From the NCBI GenBank assembly GCA_001643675.2, contig LSRY02000003.1, positions 1,116,001 through 1,180,000 of the forward strand: a stretch of DNA of 64,000 nucleotides, written 5' to 3'. The notes below the pieces were generated by a model that was given only the letters and a program-made list of their open reading frames with translations, had not been told where the DNA came from and searched no databases. Made by a program: the position numbers and the translations under genes. This document shows, one piece after another, positions 1,237-52,639 of the stretch. Numbering within the stretch: the stretch's first letter is position 1; the number at the start of each line of letters is the position of its first letter. This DNA comes from Monocercomonoides exilis PA203 (taxonomy: Eukaryota > Protista > Preaxostyla).

Positions 1237-2226
1237 TTTTCTTATGATGAAGCGAAATAGCTAAGTGCATATAACCAAAGATAGTAAATAAAAAATTGTT
1301 TTAAAAAAATTGATGATCTTGGGCTATCAAATAATGGTTAATATTATTGAATCATTAGATATTTAACCATAACTATGAACTGTTTCGTAAAAAATTATAA
1401 ATTCTGGATACAAACAAGTTTTTTCAAATAGTTCAACTTGTTAGACGAAACATCTATGTTGTTCCTGTAATTACTCATTCTTTCGATAAATATAGTTTTT
1501 TTACTGATAAACCATGAAAAACCCGTAACAAGTCTGTCTTTCTCGTAATAACCCTGTCTTTTTTGGTATTCATTTAAATGAAATTGTTGTGGGATAATGA
1601 AAAAAACTTTCAAATCCATCAGTCAGCGAATGAATTTCTATATTTGATTGATTTCATTTGTATATTATGTTGTGAACATTCATTCTCGATGAAAAAATGA
1701 CATAATTTTCGTTTATCAATAGAAAAATTGGTCGAATATTGGAAATATTTTCCATTGTTTTTTGCAAATGTGTGAATGTTTTTTTTGTTGTTTTTTTGAA
1801 ATTCAAAAAATCTCCAGAAACATCATTATATCTCAATGCAACAATAGTTTCCATAAAAGGAAATACTCTTTGACAGATATCATGAGTTATTCTCGTAACA
1901 AATGCTTCTTATCCGTTATAACTGCGACTTATTAGTAATAAGTTCATTATTCAGAAAAGAATCATACTCTTTGTAAAATATCTATAATTGAGTATGATTG
2001 ATCACATTTTTTGGTTAATGCACAATATACGACCGTAAATAAAATTAACATATGTTGAAGCTTTGATGATAACATGTCGTGCACATATGTTTTTTTCTTT
2101 CAACCATTTGCGGAAACTCGAAAAAAAAAAATATTATATTTTTTGCGTAATTATTTTTTGATCAAAAATTTTTTCTTATTTTCAATCAAATTTTCAAAAA
2201 TTTTTGCAATTAGAGATTGATATGCA

Positions 2227-3624
2227 GGCAAATTAAAAGAATATCGGAACTTTCAAATTATGATTATTCTTGTTTCTATTGATTTCTTTTGTGTTTATAA
2301 AGTATTGAAATGTGAAAAAAGTTGTCGGAAAACGTTTAAAAAAACTTTCAATAATTTTTTATTCAAGCTGATCAAATGAAAATTTCTGCTTATTCATCAG
2401 AATAATTAGAAGCATCCTCTCCGTCATCAACGCTATTTGAATCTTCTTCTTTTTCATCATCACGCGGCCCATGCAGTATATCGTCAGCATCAGGAATTTC
2501 TTCATTTTCTGAAAAATCAATTTCTTCATCAGCAATAATGGGTTTTTCTTCTGGAATAAAATGAATCATTTTTTGCAAAATATCAGCAAAACTTGGTTTA
2601 AGATTCCTTTGAACAAGCCACATGGATAAACAATCAGCAATGAATGTTTTCCTTACTCCATGCTTTGGAAAAAACGCTCTTAAATGACTCCATAACCCTT
2701 CAACTGTATTGGTACATGCGCCGGTTTCTGGATCTTTGAAGTTCCTTTTATGACAGACCGTTATATGTTCATAACCAATATCTTTCAGACAATTATAGCT
2801 TTTCCATTCATCACTAATAATTGTTGTGCCTGCTAATATCCTTTCTTGAATAATAGGGATCAATGTTTCTTTTTTCCTGTCTGGCACGATGATAACAAAA
2901 TTTGTTCCAGCTCCTCCTCCTTCCTTCCTCTCAACTCCTCCGAAAATCCACAGCAAATCCTTCTTTCTTCCTCTTCCATATTTCCTTCTCCTCCAAACAG
3001 CCTCATCTATTTCGACGTATTTTCCCGGTCCTCCTAATTTAGGCATCGTTTCGTTCCAAATTTGTGTACACACAACTCTCACAACGCTTGTCCAGTAACC
3101 AATAGTTGGATATGAAACACCCGTCAGCAAATGAATTTGTTTTAATCCAATTCCAATCCAATAGTACAATAGAATCTGCAAAACTATATTTATTGGTAGT
3201 TTCATTTTGGAAAATACGGAATTTTTAAATATTGAGGTTTTTTTTCGGCAAGTTTGACACCAAAGATATTTGTAACCTTCTGTTTCCTCCCTGATTCTCC
3301 TTTTGCTTCTGCATTTAGGGCAATCCTTGGTAGCGAACTCTTGAAAACGTTTGAAAAACCAATTCCACGTTTCTTCTTTATCATGGAAGATCGTATTCAA
3401 TAGAAATACTGTTTGACTATTTTTTTCCTCTTCAGATCTTGCCATTAAACTTTTTTGATCATAAACCATAATTAGAATTTTTTTGACTTTTCCATGTTTT
3501 TTTAAACTTCTTAAAAAGACTTTCCGATAGCTGAAAATTTGCATATTGAATCAATATATAACGTAAATGACTTTCACTATTTTTTCGTGCAAAATTGAGA
3601 GTTCCGATATACTTTCATTTTGCC
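2227..3624 (-). mobile_element. Merlin DNA transposon, family B, apparently intact
   Basis: TIRs GGCAAATTAAAAGAATATCGGAACTTTCAA / GGCAAAATGAAAGTATATCGGAACTCTCAA (rc). Exact 8-bp TSD GATATGCA at 2219-2226 and 3625-3632. The empty site is visible in the second Merlin-A copy near 33973-33980. Confidence 0.95.
2390..3544 (-). CDS. Merlin/ISXO2-like DDE transposase (384 aa)
   Basis: Zn ribbon CPKC..CQTC, HTH region, LGGPGKYVEIDE, WIFGGVER, IISDEWKSY, HITVCH, TNTVEGLWS (D-D-E triad) and an acidic tail. Uninterrupted ORF; the true start may be a downstream Met. Confidence 0.92.
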   Translation of the reverse strand: MQIFSYRKVFLRSLKKHGKVKKILIMVYDQKSLMARSEEEKNSQTVFLLNTIFHDKEETWNWFFKRFQEFATKDCPKCRSKRRIREETEGYKYLWCQTCRKKTSIFKNSVFSKMKLPINIVLQILLYYWIGIGLKQIHLLTGVSYPTIGYWTSVVRVVCTQIWNETMPKLGGPGKYVEIDEAVWRRRKYGRGRKKDLLWIFGGVERKEGGGAGTNFVIIVPDRKKETLIPIIQERILAGTTIISDEWKSYNCLKDIGYEHITVCHKRNFKDPETGACTNTVEGLWSHLRAFFPKHGVRKTFIADCLSMWLVQRNLKPSFADILQKMIHFIPEEKPIIADEEIDFSENEEIPDADDILHGPRDDEKEEDSNSVDDGEDASNYSDE

Positions 3625-3678
3625 GATATGCAAACAAATATTTCTTAACAAATATGATTTAAGCAATGCAACGGTTTT

Positions 3679-4713
3679 TTATTCGGGTTCATATTCAGAA
3701 TGCTCCGCTCCATCGCTAACTTCCATCGAATCCTCAGAAATTTCTTCATTTTGTTCAGCTAAAACTGGCACATCTTCTTCGTCATCATCTTCTTCGTGGT
3801 CTTCCTTTTCTTCTTCAATATATTCATCCACTTTATATTGGCAAATTTCTTTCACAGTTTCAACAAATGTTGATTGTTTTCTTTTTTGAAACACAAAAGA
3901 AGAATTATAATCATCAATGAATTTCTCCTTCAGCCCCGTGCGAGGCAAATCTTTTCGAAATTGGCTCCAAAGTCCCTCAATCATGTTGGTACATATTTCG
4001 CTTTCTGGATCTTTAAAATGATATTCATGGCAGACTGTTTTGTGGCCGTAACCGATTTAACTGAGAGATGAGTACGCTCTCCATTCATCACTGTGAATCA
4101 TAGTTCCAGGTAAGATATTCGCTTGAATGATTGGTAGCAATGTATCTTTTTTCCTATTAGGGACTCTGATAATAAAAAAGCTTCCTTGTTTCCCATCCTG
4201 AGTTCTTTGAACAGCTCCAAAAAGCCAGATCTGCTTCTTCCATCTGCCTTTATGATATTTTCTTCTGTTCAAAATTGCTTCGTCAATTTCCACAATTGTA
4301 TTTTCATCTCCAATTGGCTGAAACGATGATGCTGAGCTCAGTGCCATTGCTGCTGTTGCAAGGGAATGGTAAAAACCAACTGTGTTTCTATGCACACCAA
4401 GAAGTGAAGAAGTTTGCATGATTGAAAGCTTCATCCATTTGAAAAGGAAAATATGCATTAATTTTCCAATTCCTATTTTTTGATTTTCTATTGATAGATT
4501 TGACAGCAGGCTTATTGTTTTATTGCATCTGAAGCACCTCCATTGCCTGGAATTAGGATTTCGTTCATAGAGAACCATTTCCTTGTGACAATTTCTGCAT
4601 TCTATGTATCTTTGATTTAACACTTCATTTCTGAACCATTCCCATGTATCATTTGCGTTATGAAATAATTCTTTGAAGAAGCTAATTTTGAATTTGCGAT
4701 CCTCAATTTGCAT
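3679..4713 (-). pseudogene. Merlin-A transposase with one in-frame TAA (4057-4059)
   Basis: ORFs 4713-4057 and 3984-3679 are in the same frame: CRNC..CFRC, IVEIDE, IHSDEWRAYSSLS*IGYGHKTVCH..TNMIEGLWS. Confidence 0.9.
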
Positions 4714-4941
4714 TCAGAAAAAAATTGCAAAATTAATATTTTGATCAAAAATTTTGATCGATCCCATAATTTGAGTAAAAATTTTATAAATTTCATGGGT
4801 CCAACAAAAAAGTTTCCGCACAAAAAAATTCAAGCAAACCATATAAAACAGTTAATAATATTCTTATAATCATCCACACAGAAAATTGTTAACGGTCGTA
4901 TGTTGTGCACTTACCAAATATTTATATGGAGTTTATAAAAG

Positions 4942-5002: not shown

Positions 5003-5366
5003 ATAGGAACAAACAATTTTGGCAAAGGGCTACTTTAAGGGGACCTAAAAAATTTAAAATTAGCTTCATGAAAAGACTAAATGTTTCCAATTGAATTTTC
5101 GTCAACACTCTTTGGTGTTGACAATATGTTTTATTAATCATCTAACTTTTAAAGGGTTCGTTCTCAAAAACAACTGTCCCCTAATTGAATTTATTAATAT
5201 TTTTTAGTGTAATTAATTAATTTTAAAATAATTCGACATTTTTATGTTTTCAAATTTGTTTTTTATTGCCTTATGCAATTGTTTGGGTTGAAAATAACTC
5301 AATTTAAGTATTTAAATGAAGTTTGAAAAAAGTTTCGTAAACATAAGATTTGAAAAAAAAAAAACA

Positions 5367-6671
5367 AGAGATATTGTACATCAGCTATAGATCCATCTCG
5401 ATTAGGTCAATCAATATTATCGATTTATGAATATCTGATGGTTATTATCATCTTGTATAATAAGTTGGATATGCAATTATAATAGGTAGAGATCGATGAT
5501 TATTGCTGATACTCTTAGGGGTTTATCATGATTAGATATTCAGTGATGTTCTATAAAGATGGAGTCATTGATAAGTGTAATCGAGATATATCAATAGCTA
5601 ATATACCATATCTCCAAGGAGGAGAATTAGCTAAAAGATTAACTGAAACGGAGACGAAGTCTCCTAAGCAACTTCGTTGCGAAGTGTTCAAGTTGGTAAA
5701 TTAGTGGTGAAATTGTGTGTTATCGTTGATGAAATACATGAGTTATATGTTGAACGTGTTATGTGTCGAAGGTGTTTGTTGAACGTCGGTGTTATCGTTC
5801 GTGTAATCGTTGGTGAAAGTGTCGAAGTTGGTGAAATAGTGTGAAAATTGATGAAATTGTCGATGAAAAACATGAGTTGAACATGTGATGTTATCGTTGA
5901 TGTGAACGTTGGTGAAAACCGCAAATAAAAATAATTAAGTTTTTTGTTTTATAGTCAATGGGTCGGAAGAAGATATACACAACTGTGGAAGAAGCGAAAG
6001 CGGCTCAACAGAAACAAATTAAACAGTTTCAGAAAAAACGTAAGGAAGAAACTAAGTATTACAACGAACATGTATCTGAAAAACAGAAGAAGTTGATTAA
6101 GTATCTGAGGAGAAAGCTTATCGAAAGTGATGAGTTGTTAGATGAGTTGATGGAAAAAGTTAATGGTTAAGGTGAATGTGTTTATTTTTTGGTTGGAAGA
6201 GTTAATGGTGTTCGCAACGAACGCAGACTTTGTCTCGGTATCAAACAGTAGTCACGATGACATTGTGGTGGATTGCTAACATCAATATTTTTTGAACAAA
6301 TGGCAGTATGGTGGATTGCCACATCGATGTTTTTCACTTGATTTTGGTGTTATTTTGGTGTATTTAGCTTGAAAAAGTTGTCAATCGGTGTCCAGGATAC
6401 CGAATTGTGGCAATATCGAGATGCTTGGGGAAGGGAAATATTGACTAAAATCTCCGTGCTGGAAGCGTAAACAGATAAACCGGTAAACCGGATCTTTTTA
6501 TTTCGTCTGAAAAGAGCTGCCAACATGCCATTTTTGCCAACATGGGCAATTTACCCCTAATTTGGTATGATTTTGAGGGTTTTTATTTATTTTCGATTAT
6601 GTTGTCATCTTGCCACATTGCCACATGGAATCGTTGATGTTACACATTATTTATATTGTTAGTGGCACACA
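5367..6671 (+). repeat. Left TIR of the PrimPol-helicase element
   Basis: Reverse complement of 9406-10709. The differences I saw were one T in a homopolymer near 5940 and a 5-nt block at 5375-5379. Confidence 0.95.
5958..6170 (+). CDS. Small basic helical protein (70 aa) encoded in the left TIR, putative DNA-binding
   Basis: ATG-started MGRKKIYTTVEEAKAAQQKQ.., K/E-rich coiled-coil composition; identical copy in the right TIR. Confidence 0.65.
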   Translation: MGRKKIYTTVEEAKAAQQKQIKQFQKKRKEETKYYNEHVSEKQKKLIKYLRRKLIESDELLDELMEKVNG

Positions 6672-7018
6672 TCAGTTATATCGTCAGTGACACACATCAG
6701 TTGAACCGTCAGTTGTTTCGAACAGTCATCACTCTGCACCGGGTTGATAGTGCAGGTAATGTGAGTGATGCTGTGGTGTGGAAATATTGGGTTAAATCTC
6801 CGAGCTTATCACCTAGACTGGGTGGACCGGGTCAAATATATTCTGGAAATTATGTGGGCAAACAAGCAAACTGAGCAAATTGGGAAAAATACATTTAATG
6901 TGAAAATTAACTGTTTTCCGTCAAAGTTCGACATTAACCTCAACATCATCTTCCCCGTTATTTCACGTTTCAAAAATAAATCTGTTTCAAAAAAATTTGT
7001 TTTTTTTATTTTTATAAA

Positions 7019-9394
7019 ATGACAAACCCCCAAACAGACTCTGACAACGTAATCCAACAACTAATTGATTCAATTTCAACAGAACAGCAAACGCTGGGAG
7101 AACGAATGAAAGATCACCTTGTTAACTTGTTCGACTACAAGAAATACTCTGACAAGAAGCAGGGCCAACGACACACTGGAACAGCTGTCGATATCAGGAA
7201 ATGTGAGGATTTTTGTGTCGTTGATGTTGATATCAACAAATCCCTGCAAACTGAACATAAGAAAACCATTAGGAATTCCATCCTCGAGAAACTCCCCCGA
7301 AATGTCGGACTTGTTCAAACAGTTAATGGTGGTATTCACATTTATTGTGAGCTGTGTGATTATCCCCTCAGATGTTCTTCACAAACGAAAGTGTTCACAA
7401 GTCCAGAGTACGATATCGACATTTTTGCAGGTATTGGAGATGGAAAACAGAGGCTTGTTGTTCAAGCTGACTCTTCATGCAGAGAGATGAAAGATGGCAA
7501 GAGAATCATCACCAAATACATTCCCCTCAACAATTACAGACAGCTCACAGATCTTTCATCACTCGAGAGTGTTCTTGTCGTTTTCGGCATTGACCTCAAA
7601 ACAGAGAATACATCAGCGACAATAGCAGCTGAACCACACAATCTTCTCACACAAGATGGAGTCGTTGATATGTCTCCAACTGTCGCTCTTGCTCTTGTTG
7701 ATGGACTCAAAGATGTTGAAATACATAACTACACAGGTTCTTTGTCACTTGATTCTGAGTTAACTCTTTTACCGTTGTTTGCAGCTCTCAACTCTCTCTT
7801 CAACATTAACGGTTTCGACAACAAATCGATTGATTTTCTTTGCAATCAAATCAGAGAGACAGCTGCTCTGACAGCAAATGCAATCACTCGCTTTGAAGAG
7901 AAACGAAACAGGCATAGAGATAACAAGTCGCATCCATTTGTTCTGCAAAAGATTGTCAAGAGATGGAATCCAACATATTACAACGATGTGAACATTCCAC
8001 TCCTCAGAAAAGAGAATGAGCAAAAGGAAGAACCTCCACGAGAGATTACTGTTCATGAAATAGATCTCAACTCATCGTTCTCGTTCTCTGAAATCAGGGA
8101 TAAAGCTTGTCGAAAACAATATTCCTCACTATCTGAAGTCGCTGAAGATCTCACAAAAGTTCTGAGGTTTGTCGAAGCAAGGATGGAATTCATTGTGAAA
8201 GAGTTTGACATTCACACCTCTTGTTATTCAATTCCATTCAAGACAAAATCAGCAATGTCCGAACTGTTCAAAACAATAAAACTCTGGCATGATGATAAAA
8301 AGACTCTCACAGTTGAGACAGCTTCCGAACAATACTCTCATGTTCTATCGATTGATAGGGTGAAGTTCTTCTCAGATTACACTCGGATATTCTCTCTGTT
8401 CCATGGGTTCAAATACCAAATGGAAAACGAACAAAATGACGAAATCATCAAACCATTCCTCGATTTCACACGAGAAGTTATCGCCAACAACAACGAAGAA
8501 CTCTATCAATACATCCTCTGTTGGATTTCGTCAATTGTTCAAAATCCTGGTAAAAAAGCAGAAACATCACTTGTTCTCAAAGGTTTGCAAGGTATTGGAA
8601 AGAATGTCTGGACAAATGTTCTTGCTGAACCGTTGGCAGGATATTCATGTTCAAATGTCACAGAGATTGCAGAACTGACAGGTCAGTTCAACTCCATCGT
8701 CGAAGGGAAAATGCTGATTGTTCTTAACGAATTGAAGAATGTTGGAGATGATCGAACAGCTAACTTTGATGCGTTGAAGAATATAATCACGGATTCAACA
8801 ATCAGAATCAACGAGAAGAATTAGCCAAGAAGAACAGCTGAGAACGTTGCTAATTTCATATTTGTGACAAATCACACATACCCGGTAAAGATTGAGATTG
8901 GTGACAGGAGTTATATTGTTTGTAATTGAAACTCAAAAAATAAGAACAATCTCACATTCTTCAAGGATTTCACAAGCTCTTTCGACAAAGAATTCTATAG
9001 ACAACTTCTCTTTTATTTCCTCAGCAAAGATCTCTCCAATTTCAACACCAGGTCTATTCCAACAACAGAGGCAAAGGAAGATATCATTGCAGCGTCACTC
9101 TCTGTCATCGATGTGTTCTATCAGGAGCATTGCAATAAACTCAAAGAATGGTGGAGATGTTCTGAAGCACTATGTTTCAGACCAGTTGAATACAAGAATG
9201 ATCGCTCATTCCAACTAGCCATTATAGACAGATGTGAGCACAAGAGAATGGGTGGAAGAGATGGCCGAGTGTGGTGTTATAAACTTAAGCCAGAGTATGA
9301 ACAACTCCTCAGACGACGAGAAAATGAAGATGACATGGACTGTTCTGTGGAAATCAACAAAACATATTCGTTTTTTGGGATCATTAATATATAA
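7019..9394 (+). pseudogene. AEP-type primase-polymerase fused to a D5-like SF3 helicase (~791 codons; in-frame stops TAG 8822-8824 and TGA 8927-8929)
   Basis: N-terminal AEP motifs VVDVD, QTVNGGIHIY, DIDIF. Helicase Walker A LKGLQGIGKN, Walker B LIVLNE, then INEKN*PRRTAENVANFIFVTN (motif C) and GDRS (Arg-finger position). The same frame continues through KDLSNFNTRSIPTTEAKEDII to TAA at 9394. Confidence 0.88.
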
Positions 9395-9405
9395 ACTATA
9401 TAATT

Positions 9406-10709
9406 TGTGTGCCACTAACAATATAAATAATGTGTAACATCAACGATTCCATGTGGCAATGTGGCAAGATGACAACATAATCGAAAATAAATAAAAACCC
9501 TCAAAATCATACCAAATTAGGGGTAAATTGCCCATGTTGGCAAAAATGGCATGTTGGCAGCTCTTTTCAGACGAAATAAAAAGATCCGGTTTACCGGTTT
9601 ATCTGTTTACGCTTCCAGCACGGAGATTTTAGTCAATATTTCCCTTCCCCAAGCATCTCGATATTGCCACAATTCGGTATCCTGGACACCGATTGACAAC
9701 TTTTTCAAGCTAAATACACCAAAATAACACCAAAATCAAGTGAAAAACATCGATGTGGCAATCCACCATACTGCCATTTGTTCAAAAAATATTGATGTTA
9801 GCAATCCACCACAATGTCATCGTGACTACTGTTTGATACCGAGACAAAGTCTGCGTTCGTTGCGAACACCATTAACTCTTCCAACCAAAAAATAAACACA
9901 TTCACCTTAACCATTAACTTTTTCCATCAACTCATCTAACAACTCATCACTTTCGATAAGCTTTCTCCTCAGATACTTAATCAACTTCTTCTGTTTTTCA
10001 GATACATGTTCGTTGTAATACTTAGTTTCTTCCTTACGTTTTTTCTGAAACTGTTTAATTTGTTTCTGTTGAGCCGCTTTCGCTTCTTCCACAGTTGTGT
10101 ATATCTTCTTCCGACCCATTGACTATAAAACAAAAACTTAATTATTTTTATTTGCGGTTTTCACCAACGTTCACATCAACGATAACATCACATGTTCAAC
10201 TCATGTTTTTCATCGACAATTTCATCAATTTTCACACTATTTCACCAACTTCGACACTTTCACCAACGATTACACGAACGATAACACCGACGTTCAACAA
10301 ACACCTTCGACACATAACACGTTCAACATATAACTCATGTATTTCATCAACGATAACACACAATTTCACCACTAATTTACCAACTTGAACACTTCGCAAC
10401 GAAGTTGCTTAGGAGACTTCGTCTCCGTTTCAGTTAATCTTTTAGCTAATTCTCCTCCTTGGAGATATGGTATATTAGCTATTGATATATCTCGATTACA
10501 CTTATCAATGACTCCATCTTTATAGAACATCACTGAATATCTAATCATGATAAACCCCTAAGAGTATCAGCAATAATCATCGATCTCTACCTATTATAAT
10601 TGCATATCCAACTTATTATACAAGATGATAATAACCATCAGATATTCATAAATCGATAATATTGATTGACCTAATCGAGATGGATCTATAGCTGATAAAT
10701 TATATCTCT
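9406..10709 (-). repeat. Right TIR of the PrimPol-helicase element
   Basis: Reverse complement of 5367-6671; begins 11 bp after the helicase stop codon. Confidence 0.95.
9907..10119 (-). CDS. Second, identical copy of the 70-aa TIR-encoded protein
   Basis: Translation identical to 5958-6170. Confidence 0.65.
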   Translation of the reverse strand: MGRKKIYTTVEEAKAAQQKQIKQFQKKRKEETKYYNEHVSEKQKKLIKYLRRKLIESDELLDELMEKVNG

Positions 10710-10824
10710 AAAACCTTCAATCATTTTCAGTTTTGATCAATTGGTTATTATAAACCTAATATATTTATAATATCTCTACATTGCATTTTTAAGCTATTTA
10801 TTTATTGATTTAACAAAAAAATCG

Positions 10825-13550
10825 GGCAAGTTCCAAATATGTGGACCATCATTTTTTAAATTTTTAAACATATAAAACGAAAGAAAATTTCATGTTGATT
10901 AATTAAAAATTTGTTTTTTCAGTCGAAAATGTGTTTTTGAGATTTTTAATTGAATAATTAGATCAACCCCATATTTTTATTTATGTTATGCAGATAACAA
11001 AAATTTCCTGGCAAGCCGGATGCACAACGTGAACGCAAATCAAAATTTTATTGAACTGTTAAAGACATTATTCACTTTTGTTTACTTAAACATTTATCTC
11101 TTTATGCTCAAGAATTCGTTGAAAATACAATCAAATGATGAATTGAAATTTATCTGATTCAATTCAATTTTTTATTCTAGATGTTAAATGTTAGTATTAT
11201 ACACAATATTATTATTTATTTTCCGTTTAATTTTTTTGTTCATGATTTGAAGAAACAACCAATAGAAAATAATTTCATTTCATAACATGACCTTCGTTAA
11301 AATGAACGTTAACAACAATATGAATAACGATTTGTATTAATAGTTCAACATTTTCTTTTTCACATTATATACAAATTTAATTTCATAGAACAAATAAATC
11401 TTTATCGTTTGTAAAAAAGGATCTTGAAATAGAAATATTGGAATTGTTTGAAGTGATGTATTGAATGACAATCGGTTTGAAAGAAATAATTTAAGTTTCA
11501 TAATAACGGTTCATTCTCCACAAATTACTTCATTCTAATTCTCTGTTTCTGTATATCCTTTTTTGCAACGAACAACTAGTTTCAACAAAAGAACAACAAG
11601 AACAGCACACACACAAAACATAAATAATCTCAAATTCATTTTCTTTTTTTCAACTTTCAATTCTTGTCTTTTCTCTGTTCTGTTTGATTCCCCTTCTGTT
11701 CTTTAAAACAACATATTTTTAAATGCGATGAAGTTGTCACACCACCAAACATCAAGGAATATGTAATTTTGACTTTTTCATCGATCTGTGTAACCTTTGC
11801 CTGATAAATACTTGAATATGCTTTCTTTTCCGACATGTATCCTTTTTCATCAAATGCAGATCTCTCAGTTATTTCTTCATCGCATCTTCAAAAATCACGA
11901 TTAGAGATTGATTGAACAAGAACAGATGCTTTCCTTTCTCGATAAGATGCATGCTATATCACTCTGCTTTCATCTCCATCTCCTCCAGCTTTGGGACGAA
12001 CAGCGGTAATTGTTCTTCAGTTGCTACACTCAGAAGAAGGAATTCTTTGACCAGCATTCTTTTGAATCTGATATCATTCGCATTGATCACTTCATTCAAA
12101 TTATTCAAATATACTTGTCCTCCTCTGCTTCAGTTTCCACAGGGAAAACTCATACACCTCAAAATGTTAGCTCCTTCATTGTCATCCAAACTGATACAAT
12201 GCTTTTCTTCTGATGCTTTGAATGATTGTTAATCAATATATCTCATCAAATATCTTTTTTTGAACTTCCATTTTTTTTTCTTTCTCCATTGATTAAGCAT
12301 GTCACATCAAACACCGCATCTTTTTTCCAATGTGATTACGCGCTTGTCTCCTTCAGCTCCAACTTTCCAATTGCTTCATTTCTCCCGTCCAATATTCACA
12401 TTCCTTTCGTTGAAAAATATTCATGTTCAGGCTATTCTCCAGTTCTCTATCCCACCTCTAATTTTTCTCGACACAACTGAATATTTGCTTCCTTCATTCT
12501 CAACTGTGCTTCAATTCTTCTTCACACAGCACTCCCCTCCACATCCTTCTGCATCACACTTCTTCGCTTTCTTTCTCAAATGTTGTCCTCACATTCTTTT
12601 TCAAAGCCTCTTTGCATGCTAATAATGCTGGATTCACAAACTTCGCTATTTCCTTCATCAAACTTCGAAAGCTTTCAACACTGTTCAGTCATTTATTCCC
12701 TTTGATAATTCAAGCTCTTGTTCATTAACCGTTTGATCTCGTTTTTCACTATCACTCATCTTCCATCTCTTTTTCCCTCATTCTCTCTTTCAAAATAAAA
12801 CATCTACTTTTGGTTTTTTCTTCTCCTTTCCAAAAACATTTTTCTATCCAAAAAGTGTCTAAACAAATGCCCTTCACTGATCTAACCACTTTCTATATAC
12901 TCAATCATCATATTTCTGTTCTTCTTTATCATATGTTCATTTTCCGCCCATAATTTTCAACAAAGTTTTTCAAGACTTTATCAATTTGAAACCTTATGTT
13001 TTTCTGCAAATATAATAATCTTTGAGGAGTTGAACAACTTCAGAAGCAAAAATAAATCTTTTCACATTTAAATCATTTTATTCTTAAAATAAAAACCGAT
13101 TTTTATAAGAAAAAATAAAGATACACAAATTGCATACAAATTTAAAACACAATAAAATAAATAAATCAAACATAAAAATAGAAATACTCATTTCATTTAT
13201 TTTCAAATTGAATTGAATCAGATAAATTTCAATTCATCATTTGATTGTATTTTCAACGAATTCTTGAGCATAAAGAGATAAATGTTTAAGTAAACAAAAG
13301 TGAATAATGTCTTTAACAGTTCAATAAAATTTTGATTTGCGTTCACGTTGTGCATCCGGCTTGCCAGGAAATTTTTGTTATCTGCATAACATAAATAAAA
13401 ATATGGGGTTGATCTAATTATTCAATTAAAAATCTCAAAAACACATTTTCGACTGAAAAAACAAATTTTTAATTAATCAACATGAAATTTTCTTTCGTTT
13501 TATATGTTTAAAAATTTAAAAAATGATGGTCCACATATTTGGAACTTGCC
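10825..13550. mobile_element. Non-autonomous Merlin-type element with 346-bp TIRs carrying a host gene fragment (Pack-type)
   Basis: TIRs 10825-11170 and 13205-13550 (GGCAAGTTCCAAATATGTGGACC..) appear identical. Exact 8-bp TSD AAAAATCG at 10817-10824 and 13551-13558. No transposase motifs inside. Confidence 0.92.
11530..12900 (-). pseudogene. Decayed fragment of the surface-protein family inside the Pack element
   Basis: Minus-strand pieces QSIRRKALY, PLFVPKLEEMEMKAE*YSMHLIEKGKHL, ITERSAFDEKGYMSE, ITYSLMFG and CAVLVVLLLKLVVRCKK are colinear with PSLRRNIIC, SFFIPVLGSVEAKEETDRMKLTFKGML, IEHFDFDSNGFLSE, VSVHILFG and the TM-RWRK segment of the 22212-31312 protein. Boundaries approximate. Confidence 0.75.
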
Positions 13551-22060: not shown

Positions 22061-22211
22061 ATGTATTGAGTTCTTTATAAATGTCTTAGGATTATTAATT
22101 TTTAACATATTTTTTATTCGAACTTAATATCTGATAATAATATGGGGCGCAGGAATTTTTCATTTCATTATTTTTCCTGCATCCACAATTGTGTCGAGGA
22201 GCTTCCCCAAC

Positions 22212-25200
22212 ATGAAAGCCGCATGCAATATTGTTGCGTTGTTGTTGCTTGCTGCTTACTGCTGTAATGACGAAGGCATTACAGAAAGGCCATATCATCA
22301 AAAATGGAACGGGGAGATGCAGAGAAGCATGATCAACATTGCAGATGAAAATAACAAGGGAAACAATTATTTTTACAATTCATTTACAAAAGTTATAAAA
22401 CCAGCTGACAATCACATTTACAGTATCCAAACGAATCTAAAAATCATCAACACCTCCTTGTGTGTGACCCATCTCAACATCATCCCCCTCGCTGGTTGCC
22501 CACTCCTCACTGCCCAACACCGCTCCACTGCCTCCATCTGTTCCTCCACTTGCACCATCCACCCACCTTCACTCACCAACAGCCACCACCACCACTGCCC
22601 CCTCTTCCTCTCTGCCCATGCCTCCCTCGCCCTCACAAACTTCTCCCTCACCACCCACCAACCTGCCATCTTCTCCTTCCCCCTCTTCTCCACCCCAAAC
22701 AATCTCCTCCCACATGCCCACTCCCCAATCCCTGTCTCCTTCTCCATCTCCCACTCCTCTTTCTCCTCTTTCGTCTCCCTCATCCAGCCCTTCCTTTTTT
22801 CTCCTTCTTCCCTCTCTTCCCCATCCCCTTCTCGTTCTCCATCTCTTTCCCCTTCTCCTTCATCTCCCTCATCCTCATCCTCATCATCTTCTTTTTCTTC
22901 CCCTTCCCCTTCCATTTCTCATTCGATTTCCTCTTCCCCTCTCCATATCCATCACAAATCCCATCCCCACCTCCAAATCCACCTCCATCTCCATCTCTCA
23001 AACACCCTCTTCTCCAACATCTCCTCTCCCCAATCCCCTCTATCTCTTCCATCCCTTCCTTCACACTCACTCAATTCATTCATCTCAACCACTTCTTCCT
23101 CTTCTTCCTCTTCCTCTTCCACCAACACCAACACCAATACAATCCCTTCCTTCTCTCTTCATTCATCCCTCTCCATCCACTCAACCATCTTCAAACACAC
23201 CCACAACCCCATCGATGGAACCATCCTCCCCAACCTCAACAGCCCATCCACTTCTCTCTCTGCCTTCAATGCCTCTTTCCTCCACCAAACACGCTCTTCA
23301 TCAAATGATCCCGTTGAATATATTGGATCCGAAACTCAAAGAGAGAAATTAAGTCGATTGTCCTTTACTGCTTTGAATAGCTACCTCTTTGAGTGGTGTG
23401 AATGGAATGATACAACTGGTGGATCAAGTGATGGAGGAGCGCTTTATGTTAACCGCGCAAATGCAAATCTCACGATTACGTCTTGCTCATTAGCTAAATG
23501 CTCATGTTACGGATATGGTGGAGCGTTATACTGTTACAGTTTGTTAAATCTCAACTTCACCAAATCCAATTTCACAAGTTGCTCGGCTGCTCATGGAGGA
23601 GCAGTGCACACTTATCATTCACAATCAAATTCTGTTTGGACATTCTCAGAAAACAGAGTGGAAAGTTGTTCAATCACAAACTGGTGCGGAACTGGTTGGT
23701 TTTTTGCTATCAGCACCTTATCTTCAAACGGTCAATTTTTGTTTTCTGAATGCAAGTGTATTTCAAACTCAGGTGGTGATTCTGCTGGTTCTCTCACATT
23801 CAATTGGCCTCCTCAAGTGAAGCCAAATCAATTTTTGGTTGATGATTGCCAGTTCATTAATAACAAATTAACTCCTTCTTCGACATATGGAGGTGCCGCG
23901 ATGTGTTTTTATCCTCCGTATTCCTGGATGAATGGAGTAAAATTCATCACATTCTGCTTCTTCGATGGAAATATAGCTGCAAATGGAATGGGGAATGATG
24001 TGTTCTTTTACGGAAGTGATATCACCCAATCTCCATTCCAGCAATGTGGCTCAACAACTCCAACAAAAAGAGTGTGGAATAATGGAACAGCTGATAATAC
24101 CGTGTTCAATGGCTGGCTCCCACTCATCGCCCAGAACAAAATCGTTGCCAACAGCGGAAATGATGTTGATGGTTGCGGAAAAACACGCCAAAGCCCATGC
24201 GCCACCATCGAGTATGCCCTCAACGGCTTCATTTCCCTCCTCCAAGACGCTTCCCTCACACTCCTCTCCTCAACATTTGTTCCCACTCAAACACTCACCT
24301 TCAGCGCGGTTGACACTAAAATCACTGGAAATGGCACAACTGCCACCACTATCGCCTCCAGTGGCATTCCCCAACCATCAAACTCATATTCGCAGTCATC
24401 ACAATCAGCATCATCATTTTCTTCATTTTCTTCATTATCAACATCTTCTTCTTCACCAGATCCATCTGCCTCGTCTGCCCTCTTCCAACAGACCCAGGGC
24501 TCCCTCACGGTCTCTGCCCTCGCCATCGCCCACAACTCCTCAAACCCCATCACCCCCATCCTCTTCCACCTCTCCGATAACTCCCCTTCCCTCAACCTCA
24601 ACACAACCACCATCACTGGAACAACCTCCAATTCAATCACCACACCCCTCTTCTTCCTCACTGCTGGCTCCCTCGCCCTCAACCACACAGCAATCACCCA
24701 ACTCTCCCTCAACAGCCAAAGCATCTTCCACCTCACCTCCCTCACAGCACCCCTCACCCTCAACTCCTCCAACATCACCCACATCACCTCCACAGCCACC
24801 CCCACCAGCTGTGTCATCTCCTCTGCCGCCTCCCCTGCCCTCTCCCTCTCCCTCGCCAACTGCACCATGACCAACATCAATTCAGAACAGTTGAGCCAAC
24901 AAACTGCCACCAATGGCGGGTGCATCTCATTCGCCTCGTCTGCCCCTGCCAACTCGTTTTCGGTGAGTGATTCCACCTTCTCCACCTGCTGTGTGAACGA
25001 GGATACAAGTTCTGGAGGAAGAGGTGGCGCTCTCATGATCGAGTACAAGGATAATTCAGAAGTGTCAGAATCCTCCTTTTCCATAACCAATATTGTGTTT
25101 TCAGCCAACAAAGCGAGCGTCGGAAGAGATATGTATTTTGTGTGTGAATCATTTGTCGCTTCTGTGAAAGAGCCCATGTTCGCCTTCATGGGAAACATCA

Positions 25201-28200
25201 CTCAGAAAGACAACTCGATTGCTGGACATGATAGAACAGAAGCATTTAGCGATTGTGATGTCGATTTATTCATATTCTTCGATGGTTTCTTTGACAGTAC
25301 AATATATGTGGATGGAATATCAGGAGTGGAAGAGGTGTATTGTGGACTGGAGAAGGCGCCATGTTTGAATGTGAATTATGGGATAGAGCGTTTGAAGAGA
25401 ATACAGAACACAAAAGAGGAGATTATTGTTATTACAAATACGTTGATGGCAGGATGTGTGGATGTGAGTGAGATGTGTATAAAGGCAAAAACTGAGACAA
25501 TTGTAGAAATCGAATGCCAAAGGGAAGTGAGTGGATCTGAAGCGTGCGTGGTGGAATCATCATCGCTGACAGAAATGGAATTCATTGAAATTATTGTTCC
25601 ATCGAGTTTTAACAGAACAATCACATCAGTGATTGAATCGAGCACTCAAAATGGGGAGTTGCACATGAAGAACTGTGAGATGAATGTTGTTGGAGGAAAG
25701 GAAAATACAATTGGATATTTCTTGATCAGATCAATGGGAAAGATGGTTGAGCTGGATTCTGTCACGATTTCAGATGTGAAATCAACAGTCTCGCTATTTT
25801 CATTGTCTCTTTCCTCATCAAATGTGAATGAACAGGAATACAAAGTGAAACTATTGAATTGCACAATGGAAAGATTGGAAATTGATGGAGGTGAAGAGGC
25901 AGCCGTGATTGGAGGGAATGTGGAAGTTGGGATGATGATAAATGGAAGCAATATTGAAGGGCATTGTCGGAGAAGAGCAAAGAAGGAGGAGCACTGAAGA
26001 TAGTGTTGAGTGCAGATGGATACATTACAATTGAAAAGAGCTCATTTGTTGGATGTCTTTGTGAGAATATGAGTGAGGGAGGAAAAGGAGGAGGGATATA
26101 TCTGGATTGCAGTTCAAATGAAGAAGGATTTCAGCTTTCATCGATATCGTTTTCTGGATGCTCAGCAACGATAGGGAAGAACATGTTTGTGAAGAGTGGG
26201 AATCTGGTGAACAGCGTGAATACAGAGCGTTTTGCATTTGATTGCACAGGATTCAAGGATGATGGGAATGCATTTGTTGGGGAAGATGGAAAATATGGAG
26301 AAATGGATCTTCGAGTGTTTCTTGTTACTCTGAAGTGGATGGTCGTGTCTGTATCGACTGGTGGACATGACACGTTGGGATGTGGAAGTGAAATATTCCC
26401 GTGTGAATCTATGAAAAGTGGAATTGACCACATTGACAGAAGTGGAACAGAAGGAGAAAGGAAAGTGAAAGTGAAAGATGAAGGAACAATTGAGTATATT
26501 TATTCCTTTACAGATGCTCTTGTGATCGATGGAGAAGCCATTAAACATAAGACTGTTCATTTTAAAGAGAGAATCAATGGAGATTCTGCATCATCATCGT
26601 CATCTGTTATTTCATCAATTCAGCCACTTAGCTTGTTATCTTTGAAGTTACAGATTCCAAATCAATTTACACCAAGTATGAATTCACTGATCTCATCGAG
26701 TGGAGATCTTCAACTCGAAAACTGTTCATTTGACATCCAATCATCAACGGCCATTCAATACTCGTTGATAACCACAACAGGTGGAAGTTGCACATTGAAG
26801 GGATGCAGTTTGACAGGTTGTTCATTTTCCAAATCTCCATTGGTGATGGCTTCTTCTGTTTTATTTGAAAACAGCAACTTTTCAAACATTACGAATACTG
26901 GAAGCGGTGAAGGAGGTCTTACAAGAGTGACATTGCAAGGGAATAAAGATTTAGCGATAAAATCAACAAATGCATCATCTTGCTCACTTTCATCAAGCAA
27001 TGGGAAAGGAGGATTCTTGTATTTGGATTGTGAAAATTGTTTGAATGAAAATCCATTTATTTTTGATACTGGCGTAACATTTGAGAACAACAATGCAACT
27101 TTTGGAAAGAATATGTTCATTTTGGCAAAAGATTTTAACAGTTCTGTTACGAATGAGTCATTTGCCTTCAATTACTCATCAATGAAAGATGATGACAATT
27201 TGTTTGTTGGAAGTGACGATTTTCATCAAGAAAAGGATTTATTCATGTTTCTGATTCCATACAGCTCATTTGAGATATTTATTTCATTGAACGGATTTGA
27301 TGTCACGCGTTGTGGAAGTGAGGAAGAGCCATGCAAAACGATGTGGAAAGGGATGAAAAATATGGAAACGGGAGATGATATGAAAACAATTCAAATATCA
27401 GGATCAACAATTATTCAAGATTCATTCAGCATGTCCAATTATCAGATCAAAAAGGCTTCATCAATGGGAGAAGAGAATGTGAAAGCGATATTGAATTTTG
27501 AAAAGGTAATTGGAGGTCAGCTGGAATATTTCATGGAAAATGATAATCATCTTGAATTTTCCAACATCCAGCTCCAATTAACATCTAGATTTGACAACTC
27601 AGCCAAAACGATTATTTCAAACAAAGATGGAGATCTGGTGATAAGTGAATGTTCCTTCCATTCAGAAGCAGAAGTGAACAATGGTTTTGATTGTGTATTT
27701 GTGGATGCGATTGGAGGAAGCGTGAAAGTGAATGATTTGTCGATTGAATCGTGCAATGTTGGAAACAGTATATTTGTCATTCATGATGCTGGAGTTTCTT
27801 GTTATTTCTTGAATGTTCGAGTAGAATCGTTGAATGAAAGCGGCGGATGTCTTCTTCTGATCAAAGGAACTGAATTAGCAACAAAGATTAATGAAGTGGG
27901 TGAGGAAGATATCAATATTAAGATTGATAATTCATCATTTTCAGGAGTGAAGAGAAGTGACAATGGAGCAAGCATTTTGGAGTCGAAGAGTGATAAAAAG
28001 ATCGATTTGGTTGTGAAGGAGAGCAACATCACAAAAGACAAAGCAGAAATGAGTGAAAAAGGAGGTGCAATATTCTTCACATTGGGTGCATCTGGATCAA
28101 TGAAGATGATTGACTCGACAATTAGCCATTGCAGCTGCAGTCTTAGTTCAGGGAGAGGAGGAGGAGTGTATTTGGCAACAAAGGAACGAGGAGAATTGAA

Positions 28201-31200
28201 TTTCACATTTGTGGGAATGAAATTCAATGAAAATACAGCAAGAGTCGGGAATGATATTTTCATTGAATGCTTCAACATCACATCGCAGATTAATGAAAGC
28301 CAATTCCAGTTTGATCTTCGAGAGAATCATTATTCACGAATTAATGCGATATATGGAATTGATGAATGCCAGTATACAGTTTACACAGATCTGATTGAAT
28401 TTGTAACAATTTATCAGAGCGACACAATCATTGTGAGCAGTGTGAATGGAACGAATGAGAGGAGATGTGGAACAAACACACTTCCATGTTATTCGATTGA
28501 GCATGGCCTGATTCATTTGACTTCGGAGATGATTAGTCAAATACTCGTTATACAAGAGAGTGTGATTGGGGAAGAGATAAATCTGAAGGAAATGAGCTTG
28601 TGTTCAAAGAGCAGAGAAAATTGCATAGTTGAAGTTGAAACAGGAATTGAAAGGACGAGAGAAGCGCTGGTGATAGCAAGTGGAACAGTCTCATTGCTGA
28701 GAGTGAACTTTGTATTTGATTCGAATTTCATTTCTCAACATGAATCACTAATCTCACCAAAAGGTGGTATTCTTGAAATATTGAATTGTTCATTCACAAC
28801 AAAACAATCTAATGAAGAAGGAAATGAATATGCAAGCATTCCATTTCGTATTTTTAATATGGAAAAAGGAGAATTGCAACTTGATGGATGCACAATATCA
28901 AATCTAGTTCTTCATGAATCTGCATTGTATCTTTCTTCTCAACTTCCATCAGTGATTTATTTATTAACGATTTGCCATTCGACAATTTCAAAATCTCTGA
29001 TTGATATAAATGAATGTGGGCAATTAACAATTAAGGATTTCAATACAGAAAATATCTCAGTTGAAGGAGATGAAGAATCACTGATATCATGCTTGTCAAT
29101 GAAAAAGACAATTCAATTAGCAAATTGCACAATGGGTGAAGTCAGTTCAAAGACCACAAAAGGAAAATTGATGAAAGTGGAGAATTGTTTGGATGTGAAA
29201 ATGGACAGCTGCATTTTCGATGGGAGTTCAAAGGAAAGAAACGAGAAGAGTTTGAATGCAGAAGAAGAGATGTGCAGATGGGATGGATCTCTTGTGGATG
29301 CTGTGAAGAGTTCTGTGATGATGAAAGACACAACAATATCGAATTCACAAGAAGGTGGAATAACAATGAGTGGAGGGGAAATGACTGTTAATGATGGAAG
29401 ATTTGAAAACAACAATCCCTCAATTGAAGGATATCCATCACTGAGAAGAAATATCATCTGTTCAGATTCTGGAACATTGAATGTGATGAGTTTGAAAGGA
29501 GGAGATGGATGGGAAAGAAATACATCACTTTGGATGTTGAATGAAGGATGCAGTTTTGGAGGGATTGTTTCAGAGAGTGATTCATCGTTCTTCATTCCAG
29601 TTCTGGGGAGTGTGGAAGCAAAAGAAGAGACAGATAGAATGAAGCTGACATTCAAAGGAATGCTTCTTGTTCCATGCAATTTGTCATTTTCAGTTGTGAA
29701 GAGAAAAGGAGAAGAGAAAGAGATTGAACATTTTGATTTTGACTCAAATGGGTTTTTGTCAGAAATAGAAGTTGAGGGAAGTGTGGCAAAAGATCTGATC
29801 AGCAGTTGTGGAGATGAAATCGAAGTTAGTGTGCACATTTTGTTTGGGAATGCTGAATCTCCATCATCTACAGATTCATTCATTTTGAAGAATTCAACTG
29901 TATCTGATGGAGATGGAAACATTGCGAAAGGAGACAACAAAACAAATTCATTGTGGATTGTGATTGCTATTATTATATTTGTTCTTTTTATTATTCTGAT
30001 AGGATTTGTTGTTGTATCAATTCGATGGAGAAAGGCAAAGAATGAAAACAAAGATTTGAGAGAGATTGTGAATGATAACATCAGAAAAGATCCGAAGGCA
30101 TTTGAAATGGTGACAATGGAGATGTCGCCTGAGGAGCAGTGGAGGAGGGTAGAGAAAGAGGCAGAGAAGAAGAATGAAGAGAGGACAAAGAAGAGAGAAT
30201 ATGAAAAGAAAATGCATCATTCTGAGTCATCTGAATATCTTTTGGCTGAGAGTGGATCAACAGAATACATCCTTGAACAAGATTCTGATAAAATCGGTAA
30301 ATGGGATTTGGAGAAGGAAGAAGAAGAAGAGACACAAAAGCGAATTCCATCACCATCAATCTCATCCACAGATACAGAAACCACATTTGTTCGAGGGGAG
30401 GATCTGTGTCCAACAACCTCATCGATGTCAAACTTGGTGGATGCAATGGCCTGCTCATCTCCTTATGAAAAGTTGATTGTGGATTTGAGGGATTCTCTGT
30501 TCATGCTGCTTCATGGGAGGAATGAGAAGAAAGATCTGGCGATTGGCACTCTGAAGGAGAGAGAGGTGACAGGAGCGCAGATGCTGTTCTGGGTGGCGAA
30601 TGGAGCGTTGCACTCGCTTGAAGATGAGGAAGACGAACTTCCCTCTTTGCGAGACTTGAGTCCGCACATTGTGCTGTTCTCGGAGCACATGGTGATCTGC
30701 ATTGCGCTCCACTCCGACTGCTCCTCGTCATCTGATGATTCGGATTCATCCACAATCTCATCATCAACCACGATTGTGACATCTGCAAGTGTTGTTGATG
30801 ATGATGATGATGAAAGAGATTCTCTGCCCTCATCAGCGTTTGAGGATGATGAGGATAAGTGGAAGGAGTGTTTGAGGTGGAAGGCGCCCGAGCTGGTGAT
30901 GAACAGGAAGATGGGAGCAACAGAGAAGTCGGTGGCATTCTCGATTGGGATGATGCTGTGGGAGTGTGTGACACTCGAGATCCCGTTTGGAGAATACGAA
31001 GGGGAAGTGGCAGGGCAAAAGATTGCTGATGGAGAGAAGCCGGATGAGAGGGGAATTGAAGAGAGCATGATGAAGAATGTGGTGAATGCGTGTCTGTCAG
31101 CAGAGCCATCGAAAAGACCAACACTCACAGAAGTGAAGAAAGAGCTGGTTGGGTTATTTCCTTCTGGGACATTTGTTGTGACGATGACAGATGCGATCAT

Positions 31201-31312
31201 GCTTGAGGAAAGCAGCGAAGAGCAGGACGAAGAAAATGATGATGGAAAAGAATGTGAAAAGGAAGGGAAATTGGATGTGAATGAGATGAAAGACATGTTT
31301 GACAAAGGATGA
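22212..31312 (+). CDS. Giant type-I membrane protein: signal peptide, Pmp/pectin-lyase-like beta-helix repeats, TM helix, C-terminal kinase-like (probably pseudokinase) lobe; single frameshift at the G-run 25959-25961
   Basis: ATG 22212 MKAACNIVALLLLAAYCC; repeated GGA(L/I)Y..F..N.A..G.D and CG....PC.T modules; TM LWIVIAIIIFVLFIILIGFVVVSI; LRDLSPH, LRWKAPE, SVAFSIGMMLWE, PSKRPT. One extra G restores EG-A-LSEKSKEGGAL across ORFs 22191-25997 and 25964-31312 (~3,030 aa). Confidence 0.85.
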
Positions 31313-32689: not shown

Positions 32690-34184
32690 TGTAAGTGCAC
32701 AATATACGACAGTTAACAATTTTCTGTGTGGATGATTATAAGAATATTATTAACTGTTTTATATGGTTTGCTTGAATTTTTTTGTGCGGAAACTTTTTTG
32801 TTGGACCCATGAAATTTATAAAATTTTTACTCAAATTATGGGATCGATCAAAATTTTTGATCAAAATATTAATTTTGCAATTTTTTTCTGAATGCAAATT
32901 GAGGATCGCAAATTCAAAATTAGCTTCTTCAAAGAATTATTTCATAACGCAAATGATACATGGGAATGGTTCAGAAATGAAGTGTTAAATCAAAGATACA
33001 TAGAATGCAGAAATTGTCACAAGGAAATGGTTCTCTATGAACGAAATCCTAATTCCAGGCAATGGAGGTGCTTCAGATGCAATAAAACAATAAGCCTGCT
33101 GTCAAATCTATCAATAGAAAATCAAAAAATAGGAATTGGAAAATTAATGCATATTTTCCTTTTCAAATGGATGAAGCTTTCAATCATGCAAACTTCTTCA
33201 CTTCTTGGTGTGCATAGAAACACAGTTGGTTTTTACCATTCCCTTGCAACAGCAGCAATGGCACTGAGCTCAGCATCATCGTTTCAGCCAATTGGAGATG
33301 AAAATACAATTGTGGAAATTGACGAAGCAATTTTGAACAGAAGAAAATATCATAAAGGCAGATGGAAGAAGCAGATCTGGCTTTTTGGAGCTGTTCAAAG
33401 AACTCAGGATGGGAAACAAGGAAGCTTTTTTATTATCAGAGTCCCTAATAGGAAAAAAGATACATTGCTACCAATCATTCAAGCGAATATCTTACCTGGA
33501 ACTATGATTCACAGTGATGAATGGAGAGCGTACTCATCTCTCAGTTAAATCGGTTACGGCCACAAAACAGTCTGCCATGAATATCATTTTAAAGATCCAG
33601 AAAGCGAAATATGTACCAACATGATTGAGGGACTTTGGAGCCAATTTCGAAAAGATTTGCCTCGCACGGGGCTGAAGGAGAAATTCATTGATGATTATAA
33701 TTCTTCTTTTGTGTTTCAAAAAAGAAAACAATCAACATTTGTTGAAACTGTGAAAGAAATTTGCCAATATAAAGTGGATGAATATATTGAAGAAGAAAAG
33801 GAAGACCACGAAGAAGATGATGACGAAGAAGATGTGCCAGTTTTAGCTGAACAAAATGAAGAAATTTCTGAGGATTCGATGGAAGTTAGCGATGGAGCGG
33901 AGCATTCTGAATATGAACCCGAATAAAAAACCGTTGCATTGCTTAAATCATATTTGTTAAGAAATATTTGTTTGCATATCAATCTCTAATTGCAAAAATT
34001 TTTGAAAATTTGATTGAAAATAAGAAAAAATTTTTGATCAAAAAATAATTACGCAAAAAATATAATATTTTTTTTTCGAGTTTCCGCAAATGGTTGAAAG
34101 AAAAAAACATATGTGCACGACATGTTATCATCATAGCTTCAACATATGTTAATTTTATTTACGGTCGTATATTGTGCATTAACC
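32690..34184 (+). mobile_element. Merlin family A copy 2 (1.5 kb, uninterrupted)
   Basis: TIRs (T)GTAAGTGCACAATATACGAC.. and ..GGTCGTATATTGTGCATTAACC. Near 8-bp TSD ATAATAAG / AAAATAAG (7/8). Encodes the same translations as copy 1. Confidence 0.92.
32892..33926 (+). pseudogene. Merlin-A transposase with the same in-frame TAA (33546-33548)
   Basis: Translation identical to 4713-3679. Confidence 0.9.
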
Positions 34185-35151
34185 AAAATAAGGAAATTAA
34201 AACATTTCAAACATTTCTAGATATTTTTTATTTATCACAAGCTTATGTATCGCTGAAAGCATAACAAAAAAGAAAAAGGTCAAGATAAAGAAAAAAGGTC
34301 AAGATAATATTATAGCCCTAATTAATTTTCAGAAATATTTATCAATTTTCTGTCAGTGTGCGTTGTCTGGGCTCATTGATAGTTATTTGTAAAGGCAAAA
34401 AGGAAAAGATGAAAAATTGATTATCAGTTATTACACTTTACGTACAGTTTGTTGATATAATCTCATGTCATTGAGATTGCTTCATTTAATCTCGTTCAAT
34501 TGATTATCATTCACGAATACTAATAATTTTTGTTTGAATTAGATCAAAACTTTTGAATTTTTGCTAACTTCTAAAAAAATTGTTTATGTTTGAATGTTAT
34601 TCATAAAAAGAGAATACAACCAAATAACCATCTCAAAATCAAAGAAAAATAGTCGCAACAATTATAATCGGCAAGCCATTACAACAAAAGAAATCTAAAA
34701 ATAAAAATAGTGTTTAATTTTTTTAAAGAAAAAAATTTCAGTTTCAATGTTTAAAAAATTATAAAAAAGGCAATTGCATAAACAGAAAAATAAACATATT
34801 GCATTTAACAGAGTAAAGCAACAATAATGGACAATATGAAACAAGCAAGAAAATATATATAAATTCAAATACATATTCCTTTTTTTTAAAAAAAAATAGA
34901 TAAACAAAAGTCTGTGGGAAAATTAGAAGAAATAAAAGAAAAGAAAAGAAAAAAACTAATCAAAATTTAAATGAATTTTGATCTATAAATAAACATTTAT
35001 CATGCAACACTCAAACAAAGAAACTTCTTCTTTTCTGGCTCAAAGTTTTCATATAGGATTATTAAATTCTTTTCAAAAGTTAGAAATTTGTAATGACACT
35101 TATTATCACTTGAGTATTTGTGAAGCTTCTTCAAATATGATTTATCATCGA

Positions 35152-52558: not shown

Positions 52559-52639
52559 TTGAGCACTGGGGGGAGTTCAGTGGCTGCGACAATGAGCACT
52601 GGGGGGAGTTCTGTGGCTGCGACAATGAGCACTGGGAGG
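52559..52639 (+). repeat. 33-nt coding minisatellite (~2.5 copies, (L/M)STGGSSVAAT)
   Basis: Units start at 52559, 52592 and 52625. Confidence 0.9.

Follow-up and report, generated by a model that had tools for sequence, protein, structure and literature searches.

A 5.3-kb element with long terminal inverted repeats and a broken primase-polymerase/helicase gene in Monocercomonoides exilis: a possible reduced derivative of Polinton-like viruses

The stretch of DNA analysed here (64,000 nucleotides of contig LSRY02000003.1 of Monocercomonoides exilis PA203, positions 1,116,001 to 1,180,000 of the forward strand; hereafter, the window) contains at 5367–10709 an element of 5343 bp, in which long terminal inverted repeats (TIRs) surround one core gene, a predicted replicase. 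The locus raises the question of how such an element is replicated and moved, and whether it represents an undescribed system, as a preliminary description of the sequence had proposed. The analysis demonstrated that the 5.3-kb family is real, multicopy and mostly fossil, and that the copy in the window is dead. The explanation that we hold with slightly better than even confidence is that of a reduced Polinton-like virus (PLV) derivative, with long TIRs and a replicase working in intact copies, which is integrated in trans by a helper. The main parts of the element are as follows:

5367..6671, plus strand: left TIR, 1305 bp, 5' start AGAGAT (self-comparison)
6672..7018, plus strand: unique spacer ahead of the replicase gene, probable promoter region (sequence)
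7019..9394, plus strand: Prim-Pol/superfamily 3 (SF3) helicase pseudogene, 791 codons and a stop, with two in-frame stops
7091..7609, plus strand: Prim-Pol domain of the archaeo-eukaryotic primase (AEP) type, aa 25–197 (structure match, conserved residues)
8120..9289, plus strand: NrS-1/D5-type SF3 helicase region, aa 368–757 (structure, Pfam, conserved residues)
9406..10709, minus strand: right TIR, 1304 bp, 3' end ATCTCT (self-comparison)

The single AEP/SF3 gene ends 11 bp ahead of the exact right TIR, as had been described. The 791-codon length given earlier for its readthrough product also stands, but the frame is that of a pseudogene, with a TAG at codon 602 (8822–8824) and a TGA at codon 637 (8927–8929); because of these two in-frame stops, this copy is dead. 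A non-standard genetic code was rejected, since the stops differ in kind and the M. exilis relatives read through both under ordinary annotation. Pfam analysis of the replicase revealed DUF5906 and VapE-like domains in its C-terminal half. A structure model built from a 74-row alignment (mean pLDDT, 85.7) agrees with the two folds expected for the readthrough product. The N-terminal part (aa 25–197), folded alone, best matches archaeal plasmid primase-polymerases (pRN1 ORF904; Z, 9.5–9.8) and also matches the Prim-Pol of phage NrS-1 (Z, 8.1–8.3), further matches being mostly other AEPs. The helicase region has its best match in the NrS-1 polymerase (6k9c; Z, 26.4; rmsd, 4.2; 364 aligned residues), followed by the SaPI5, African swine fever virus and vaccinia D5 proteins. 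The NrS-1 and pRN1 proteins come from prokaryotic replicons, and identity in the structural alignments is 12–22%. The Prim-Pol fold carries the DxD, H and D motifs, with D69, D71 and D134 present in 74 of the 74 aligned rows and H107 in 73. In the helicase, K528 (Walker A), E571, N618 and R630 are found in all 74 rows; the SF3 Walker A, Walker B, motif C and arginine finger are present, and are interrupted by two stops in this copy. Thus, structure modelling predicts that the replicase joins a Prim-Pol of the plasmid/phage type to an SF3 helicase.

The integrase, protein-primed DNA polymerase B (pPolB) and capsid that had been reported missing left no trace in the element in a Pfam frame scan at E ≤ 0.01, in which none of the 82 further frames of at least 28 aa in 5367–9420 matched (the scan did not extend over the right TIR, which nearly duplicates the left). 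Neither packaging ATPase nor protease genes were found in the open reading frame (ORF) list or in the frame scan. The core is big enough for just one long gene and, together with the 82 matchless frames, this indicates that pPolB and rve integrase are not encoded by the element. Such a tight TIR–spacer–gene–TIR layout, with no gene remnants, is in keeping with an independent replicase-only lineage, that is, an AEP-SF3 counterpart of transpovirons that has persisted for long, depends on its own replicase without a close parent in the genome, and parasitises the integrase, and perhaps the capsid, of an unrelated helper; we regard this as a possibility of rather less than even weight.

The TIRs, put at about half of the element in the preliminary description, together constitute 48.8% of its 5343 bp. 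The arm pairs 5367–5949/10127–10709 and 5928–6671/9406–10149 are each 99% complementary, self-BLAST yielded 99.3% over 1318 nt, and the arms are 99.6% alike, the five differences being four substitutions and one base in a T run. All four substitutions cluster at terminal positions 9–13 (5375–5379 and the mirrored right end). The element ends are 5'-AGAG...CTCT-3', and AGAGAT...ATCTCT fits (AG)3 at five of six bases. The ends are flanked by two copies of the target site:

5361..5366, no strand: left target-site copy AAAACA, five of six bases matching the right copy
10710..10715, no strand: right target-site copy AAAACC

The duplication, seen at one locus, can be read as 6 bp with one change or as 5 bp plus an extra base. 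Four DNA runs hold the element, all of them from one sample that is possibly the source of the window. In three of the four runs, a contig with 18 other letters joins 5341 to 10710 with the target present once; this empty-site contig is a related repeat without the element. The element is inserted in another multicopy repeat (5068–5366, 10710–10824), other copies of which are without it. According to the available text of the sources, vertebrate Mavericks have (AG)3//(CT)3 ends and a 6-bp target-site duplication (PMC8097293), and Polintons in general have one of 5–8 bp (10.1101/2023.08.22.554363). The element agrees with what is expected of a Polinton in its TIR length (1.3 kb, within 100–1500 bp), its AG...CT ends, and a target-site duplication within 5–8 bp. 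By analogy with Polintons, an rve-type integrase acting in trans probably accounts for the integration. Thus, the earlier view of an integrated satellite or linear-plasmid-like element is borne out as regards integration, with Polinton-like ends and a target duplication now added, but nothing points to a linear plasmid existing in free form.

The element is represented by many relatives in the same genome. The five closest of 94 homologues (75–89%, BLASTP) are M. exilis proteins, four of them named 'putative Poxvirus D5 protein'. Comparison of the window protein with nine other M. exilis proteins placed eight of these in its replicase family, at 86–96% identity over aligned columns. P0074 (599 aa) represents a second Prim-Pol/SF3 family, 40–44% identical, and is a candidate replicase of capsid-bearing elements; the presence of this divergent family (40%) would suit an independent lineage. 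P0096 (XP_067733425.1, 804 aa) is the only full-length protein of the nine, with eight of eight motif residues; judged by eye, its tail seems to continue, past two small indels, into the outset of the TIR sequence (a one-frame BLASTP did not reach significance). The other eight are truncated or gapped, which argues against a long-lived independent lineage. The sister copy P0004 (95.6% identical) ends at the same residue as the window copy and, therefore, the stopped ORF was likely copied, either in trans or by segmental duplication. Such copying, together with 17 non-synonymous changes among the 27 best-supported coding differences of the window copy, is compatible with a passive non-autonomous deletion product, in which the helicase gene survived only by adjoining the TIR and has no role in spread; PLV replicases are stated often to adjoin the TIR as end modules (PMC11296320, in part). 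We consider this explanation improbable, as copies whose proteins are no more than 86–96% identical to that of the window copy retain the complete gene with its upstream region, one of these copies is intact, and dead siblings are moved by trans-acting proteins under any model.

Depth analysis indicates that the element is multicopy. Relative to the unique flank, the summed contig depth of the core is 28x (run X3) and 74x (run X1) in the two deep runs; these values are not copy numbers, yet the depth suggests tens of copies. TIR depth per arm divided by core depth is 0.93–1.35 in all four runs and, since the two are about equal, most TIRs probably belong to helicase-bearing elements. Both the near-equal depths and the suggested tens of copies, against six capsid genes in the host, are in favour of an independent lineage. 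Contigs without any differing letter cross the left (6643–6875) and right (9329–9435) inner junctions. The left TIR–spacer junction is found in a second copy, on a contig with 13 differences, and the right junction in another, where one contig spans 9275–9540 with 39 differences and two joints link the helicase end to the TIR. Thus, the depth and the exact-match junction contigs speak against a single-copy element and of an unsupported inverted duplication, which the preliminary description had named as possible refutations. With each inner junction recurring in other copies, the reduced layout exists in multiple copies. Same-layout copies, sought by the preliminary description, are accordingly supported by both junctions and one intact 804-aa ORF, but no second copy was followed over its full length, nor does any piece among the contigs listed cover the whole element. 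From eight loose-end strings tested, three fit the left inner flank, three lean towards the right junction, one is at shuffle level and one fits nothing; two of the right-leaning strings match the left equally well, owing to the TIR sequence that they include, and the third is barely above shuffles.

Most contigs matched to the element are less than 99% alike, and the TIR of the window copy differs from sibling TIRs at many places. Copies that differ so widely and are mostly broken fit chromosomal fossils. A free linear plasmid that integrates only occasionally, or a mis-assembled inverted duplication, is therefore very hard to credit, even though long TIRs with a replicase are plasmid-like and the whole element is not covered by one piece among the contigs listed. 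Each of the two inner junctions is crossed by exact-match contigs, and a site lacking the element is present; the places listed include none with many ends, which contigs are, however, unable to show.

Relatives of the replicase were found in Trichomonas vaginalis, Streblomastix, Tritrichomonas and many metagenomes. The relative from T. vaginalis, with 41% identity across 98% of the query, heads a 198-member cluster. A metagenome scan returned 12 loci, three of them at 40–42% identity; two were read for genes and three for repeats, and no TIRs were seen on the three contigs read for repeats, which are short. On L004, a 42% relative lies near an A32 packaging ATPase, with an HNH gene in between. 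The regions L003 368–6653 and L004 2–2952 are PLV-like fragments with an SF3 helicase, an HNH gene, an A32 ATPase and an incomplete ORF of 1289 aa containing internal repeats. The A32 ATPase of L004, used as a query, gave 64 relatives, none named as M. exilis, this word-limited search being no evidence of absence. In viral-contig scans, the window protein, each of three relatives and the terminal 27-mer had 0 loci, and a scan with alignment gave one distant locus (29%). In a FastTree of 47 rows (12 of 58 rows left out, L003 added), the M. exilis and Streblomastix proteins group together (SH 95); the backbone is open and, for this reason, no donor is claimed. According to the literature, in the parts available, AEP-SF3 replicases are common in PLVs (PMC11296320; 10.64898/2026.06.19.733378; PMC11161782), among 1705 copies of TvMav3 Mavericks, 91.8% have a primase gene and 8.6% have a D5 gene (PMC12289875), a Metamonada capsid group is described, and M. 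exilis has six capsid genes in one cluster (PMC10120064, Table S4), in line with the helper supposed earlier to exist in the host. Based on the relative near a packaging ATPase, the T. vaginalis Mavericks with primase and D5 genes, and the six host capsid genes, the replicase can be classed as a Polinton/PLV-type gene. No other species was seen to share the 5.3-kb layout, and the relatives with visible context are virus-like, which weakens the case for an independent lineage.

Several observations weigh against a Polinton-like-virus derivative. No contig among those listed clearly links these TIRs or the helicase to other viral genes, and one of the 12 distinct loose-end places listed (X4 9441) fitted neither side. 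The L003/L004 relative is without the Prim-Pol half, and the T. vaginalis protein was not tied to the TvMav3 primase or D5 gene (0 matches for six gene ids). Because the second M. exilis helicase family (P0074) is only 40% identical, the parent may be other than the capsid-bearing elements. The target duplication has one mismatch beside the left end. The identity of the TIRs could equally be explained by gene conversion or recent insertion, and perfect TIRs are also found in a second pair elsewhere in the window.

If the element is indeed such a derivative, its parent would be a metamonad Polinton-like virus, of which only the long TIRs and the predicted primase-polymerase/SF3 helicase were kept. 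The NrS-1 polymerase is reported to prime de novo, with processivity raised by the helicase (PMC7102993, in part). By analogy, the protein of intact copies would unwind DNA with its helicase ring, while the Prim-Pol would prime de novo within the TIR and extend. The displaced strand would then fold back through the 1.3-kb TIRs, whereby matching ends would be regenerated; this fits the window copy, the arms of which are 99.6% alike and diverge from sibling TIRs at many positions. The rve-type integrase of a helper would insert the AG...CT-ended DNA with a 5–6 bp duplication, and dead copies, the window copy included, would use proteins from siblings or the parent.

The TIRs and the spacer contain further features:

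5368..5614, no strand: imperfect terminal fold-back with 48-nt arms, 77% complementary
5682..5917, plus strand: degenerate direct-repeat array within the left TIR
5958..6170, plus strand: 70-aa basic ORF in the left TIR (ORF list)
6630..6713, plus strand: tandem repeat of a 25-bp unit (2.9 copies) across the inner boundary of the left TIR
9907..10119, minus strand: second identical copy of the 70-aa ORF, in the right TIR (ORF list)

A 10-nt motif drawn from the direct repeats occurs seven times in the left TIR and spacer (base shuffles: mean, 0.1; maximum, 3), and its copies are candidate binding or priming sites. The terminal fold-back does not fold beyond chance (z = −1.44; 16 of 200 shuffles fold equally well). 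The duplicated small protein noticed earlier was recovered as the same 70-aa ORF in each TIR. It has no Pfam match, weak PHROG matches (E ≥ 0.007) and one homologue, P0119 (89%); the protein is possibly DNA-binding. P0119 and the helicase P0005 have consecutive accessions and equally long contigs. In the small-ORF regions (5869–6135 and 9874–10140), contig depth is about 1.1–3x that of the core and highest in the left arm; owing to this higher depth, the small ORF may also occur in other elements, perhaps in the helper.

Other mobile elements are found elsewhere in the window. An ISXO2-like transposase element at 2227–3624 (Pfam PF12762; E-value, 1e-19), which we take to be Merlin-type, has GGC...GCC ends and an 8-bp duplication (GATATGCA), and is located inside another ISXO2-like element. 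Inverted ISXO2-like copies at 2009–4914 and 32691–34188 are 99.8% identical over 1290 bp and share the same split transposase frame, the second being without the nested insertion. The 2.7-kb element at 10825–13550, with perfect 346-bp TIRs, GGC...GCC ends, an 8-bp duplication (AAAAATCG) and no ORF of at least 130 aa, probably belongs with the ISXO2-like family as a non-autonomous partner. At 52148–55001, three neighbouring AT-rich ORFs (501, 215 and 175 aa), two of which were scanned and gave no significant Pfam match, possibly constitute another mobile element. Two very long frames at 22128–31312, of 1289 aa and 1784 aa, the latter with a kinase domain at its end, are likely one host gene of an expanded kinase family.

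Similar to TvMav3 Mavericks/Polintons, the element has long TIRs, AG...CT ends and a 5–6 bp duplication, and TvMav3 has primase and D5 genes; however, Mavericks/Polintons are 10–28 kb long versus 5.3 kb here, with pPolB, integrase, ATPase and capsid that were not found in the element, and TvMav3 TIRs are 100–130 bp versus 1.3 kb. PLVs whose replicases are AEP-SF3 proteins, among them the Metamonada capsid group, share the replicase type, and one relative lies near an A32 ATPase, but their morphogenetic module and tyrosine recombinase or rve integrase have no equivalent in the element. Transpovirons are likewise small, TIR-bounded, helper-dependent replicons without capsid genes. They are reported to encode pPolB-SF1 fusions and to parasitise mimivirids (PMC11161782, in part); in contrast to these Tlr1-like fusions, the element has a Prim-Pol and SF3 fold, and resides in a nuclear genome with a target duplication. 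Thus, it is neither an autonomous Polinton nor a transpoviron, and works like a helper-dependent Polinton derivative. A bioRxiv preprint of 2026, in its available part, describes in EVE_QPMI01_83 an element bounded by repeats with AEP as its sole gene, as well as mobile AEP-SF3 genes in Bodo saltans virus, and suggests that such replicases move alone (10.64898/2026.10.13.758929), which also favours an independent lineage. These cases, likened here by description, share with the element a lone replicase proposed to move independently, but consist of one contig and of viral genes without flanking repeats, whereas the element is multicopy, with 1.3-kb TIRs and an empty site.

No description of the 5.3-kb family was found in the literature searched (Repbase and Dfam were outside the search). 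The proposal of an undescribed system is weakened, as the replicase is a known Polinton/PLV module, the window copy is a pseudogene, only one of nine other proteins is full length, and AEP-only modules have already been proposed. A eukaryotic class of replicase-only elements, TIR-bounded, with their own primer-independent Prim-Pol/SF3 protein and a borrowed Polinton integrase, remains a tentative idea. Such a class, if real, would form the AEP-SF3 counterpart to transpovirons and would be the vehicle for replicase swaps among Polinton-like viruses. If this is only a deletion family, it would be a modest addition to the unclassified repeats of M. exilis, reported to make up 35% of the assembly (PMC8767320, in part). 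Polinton-like viruses often swap replicases, and self-moving AEP-SF3 modules have been proposed on thin evidence; the idea of self-moving replicases becomes testable with the present family, which is multicopy, has defined ends and a target duplication, includes one intact ORF, and belongs to a cultured protist.

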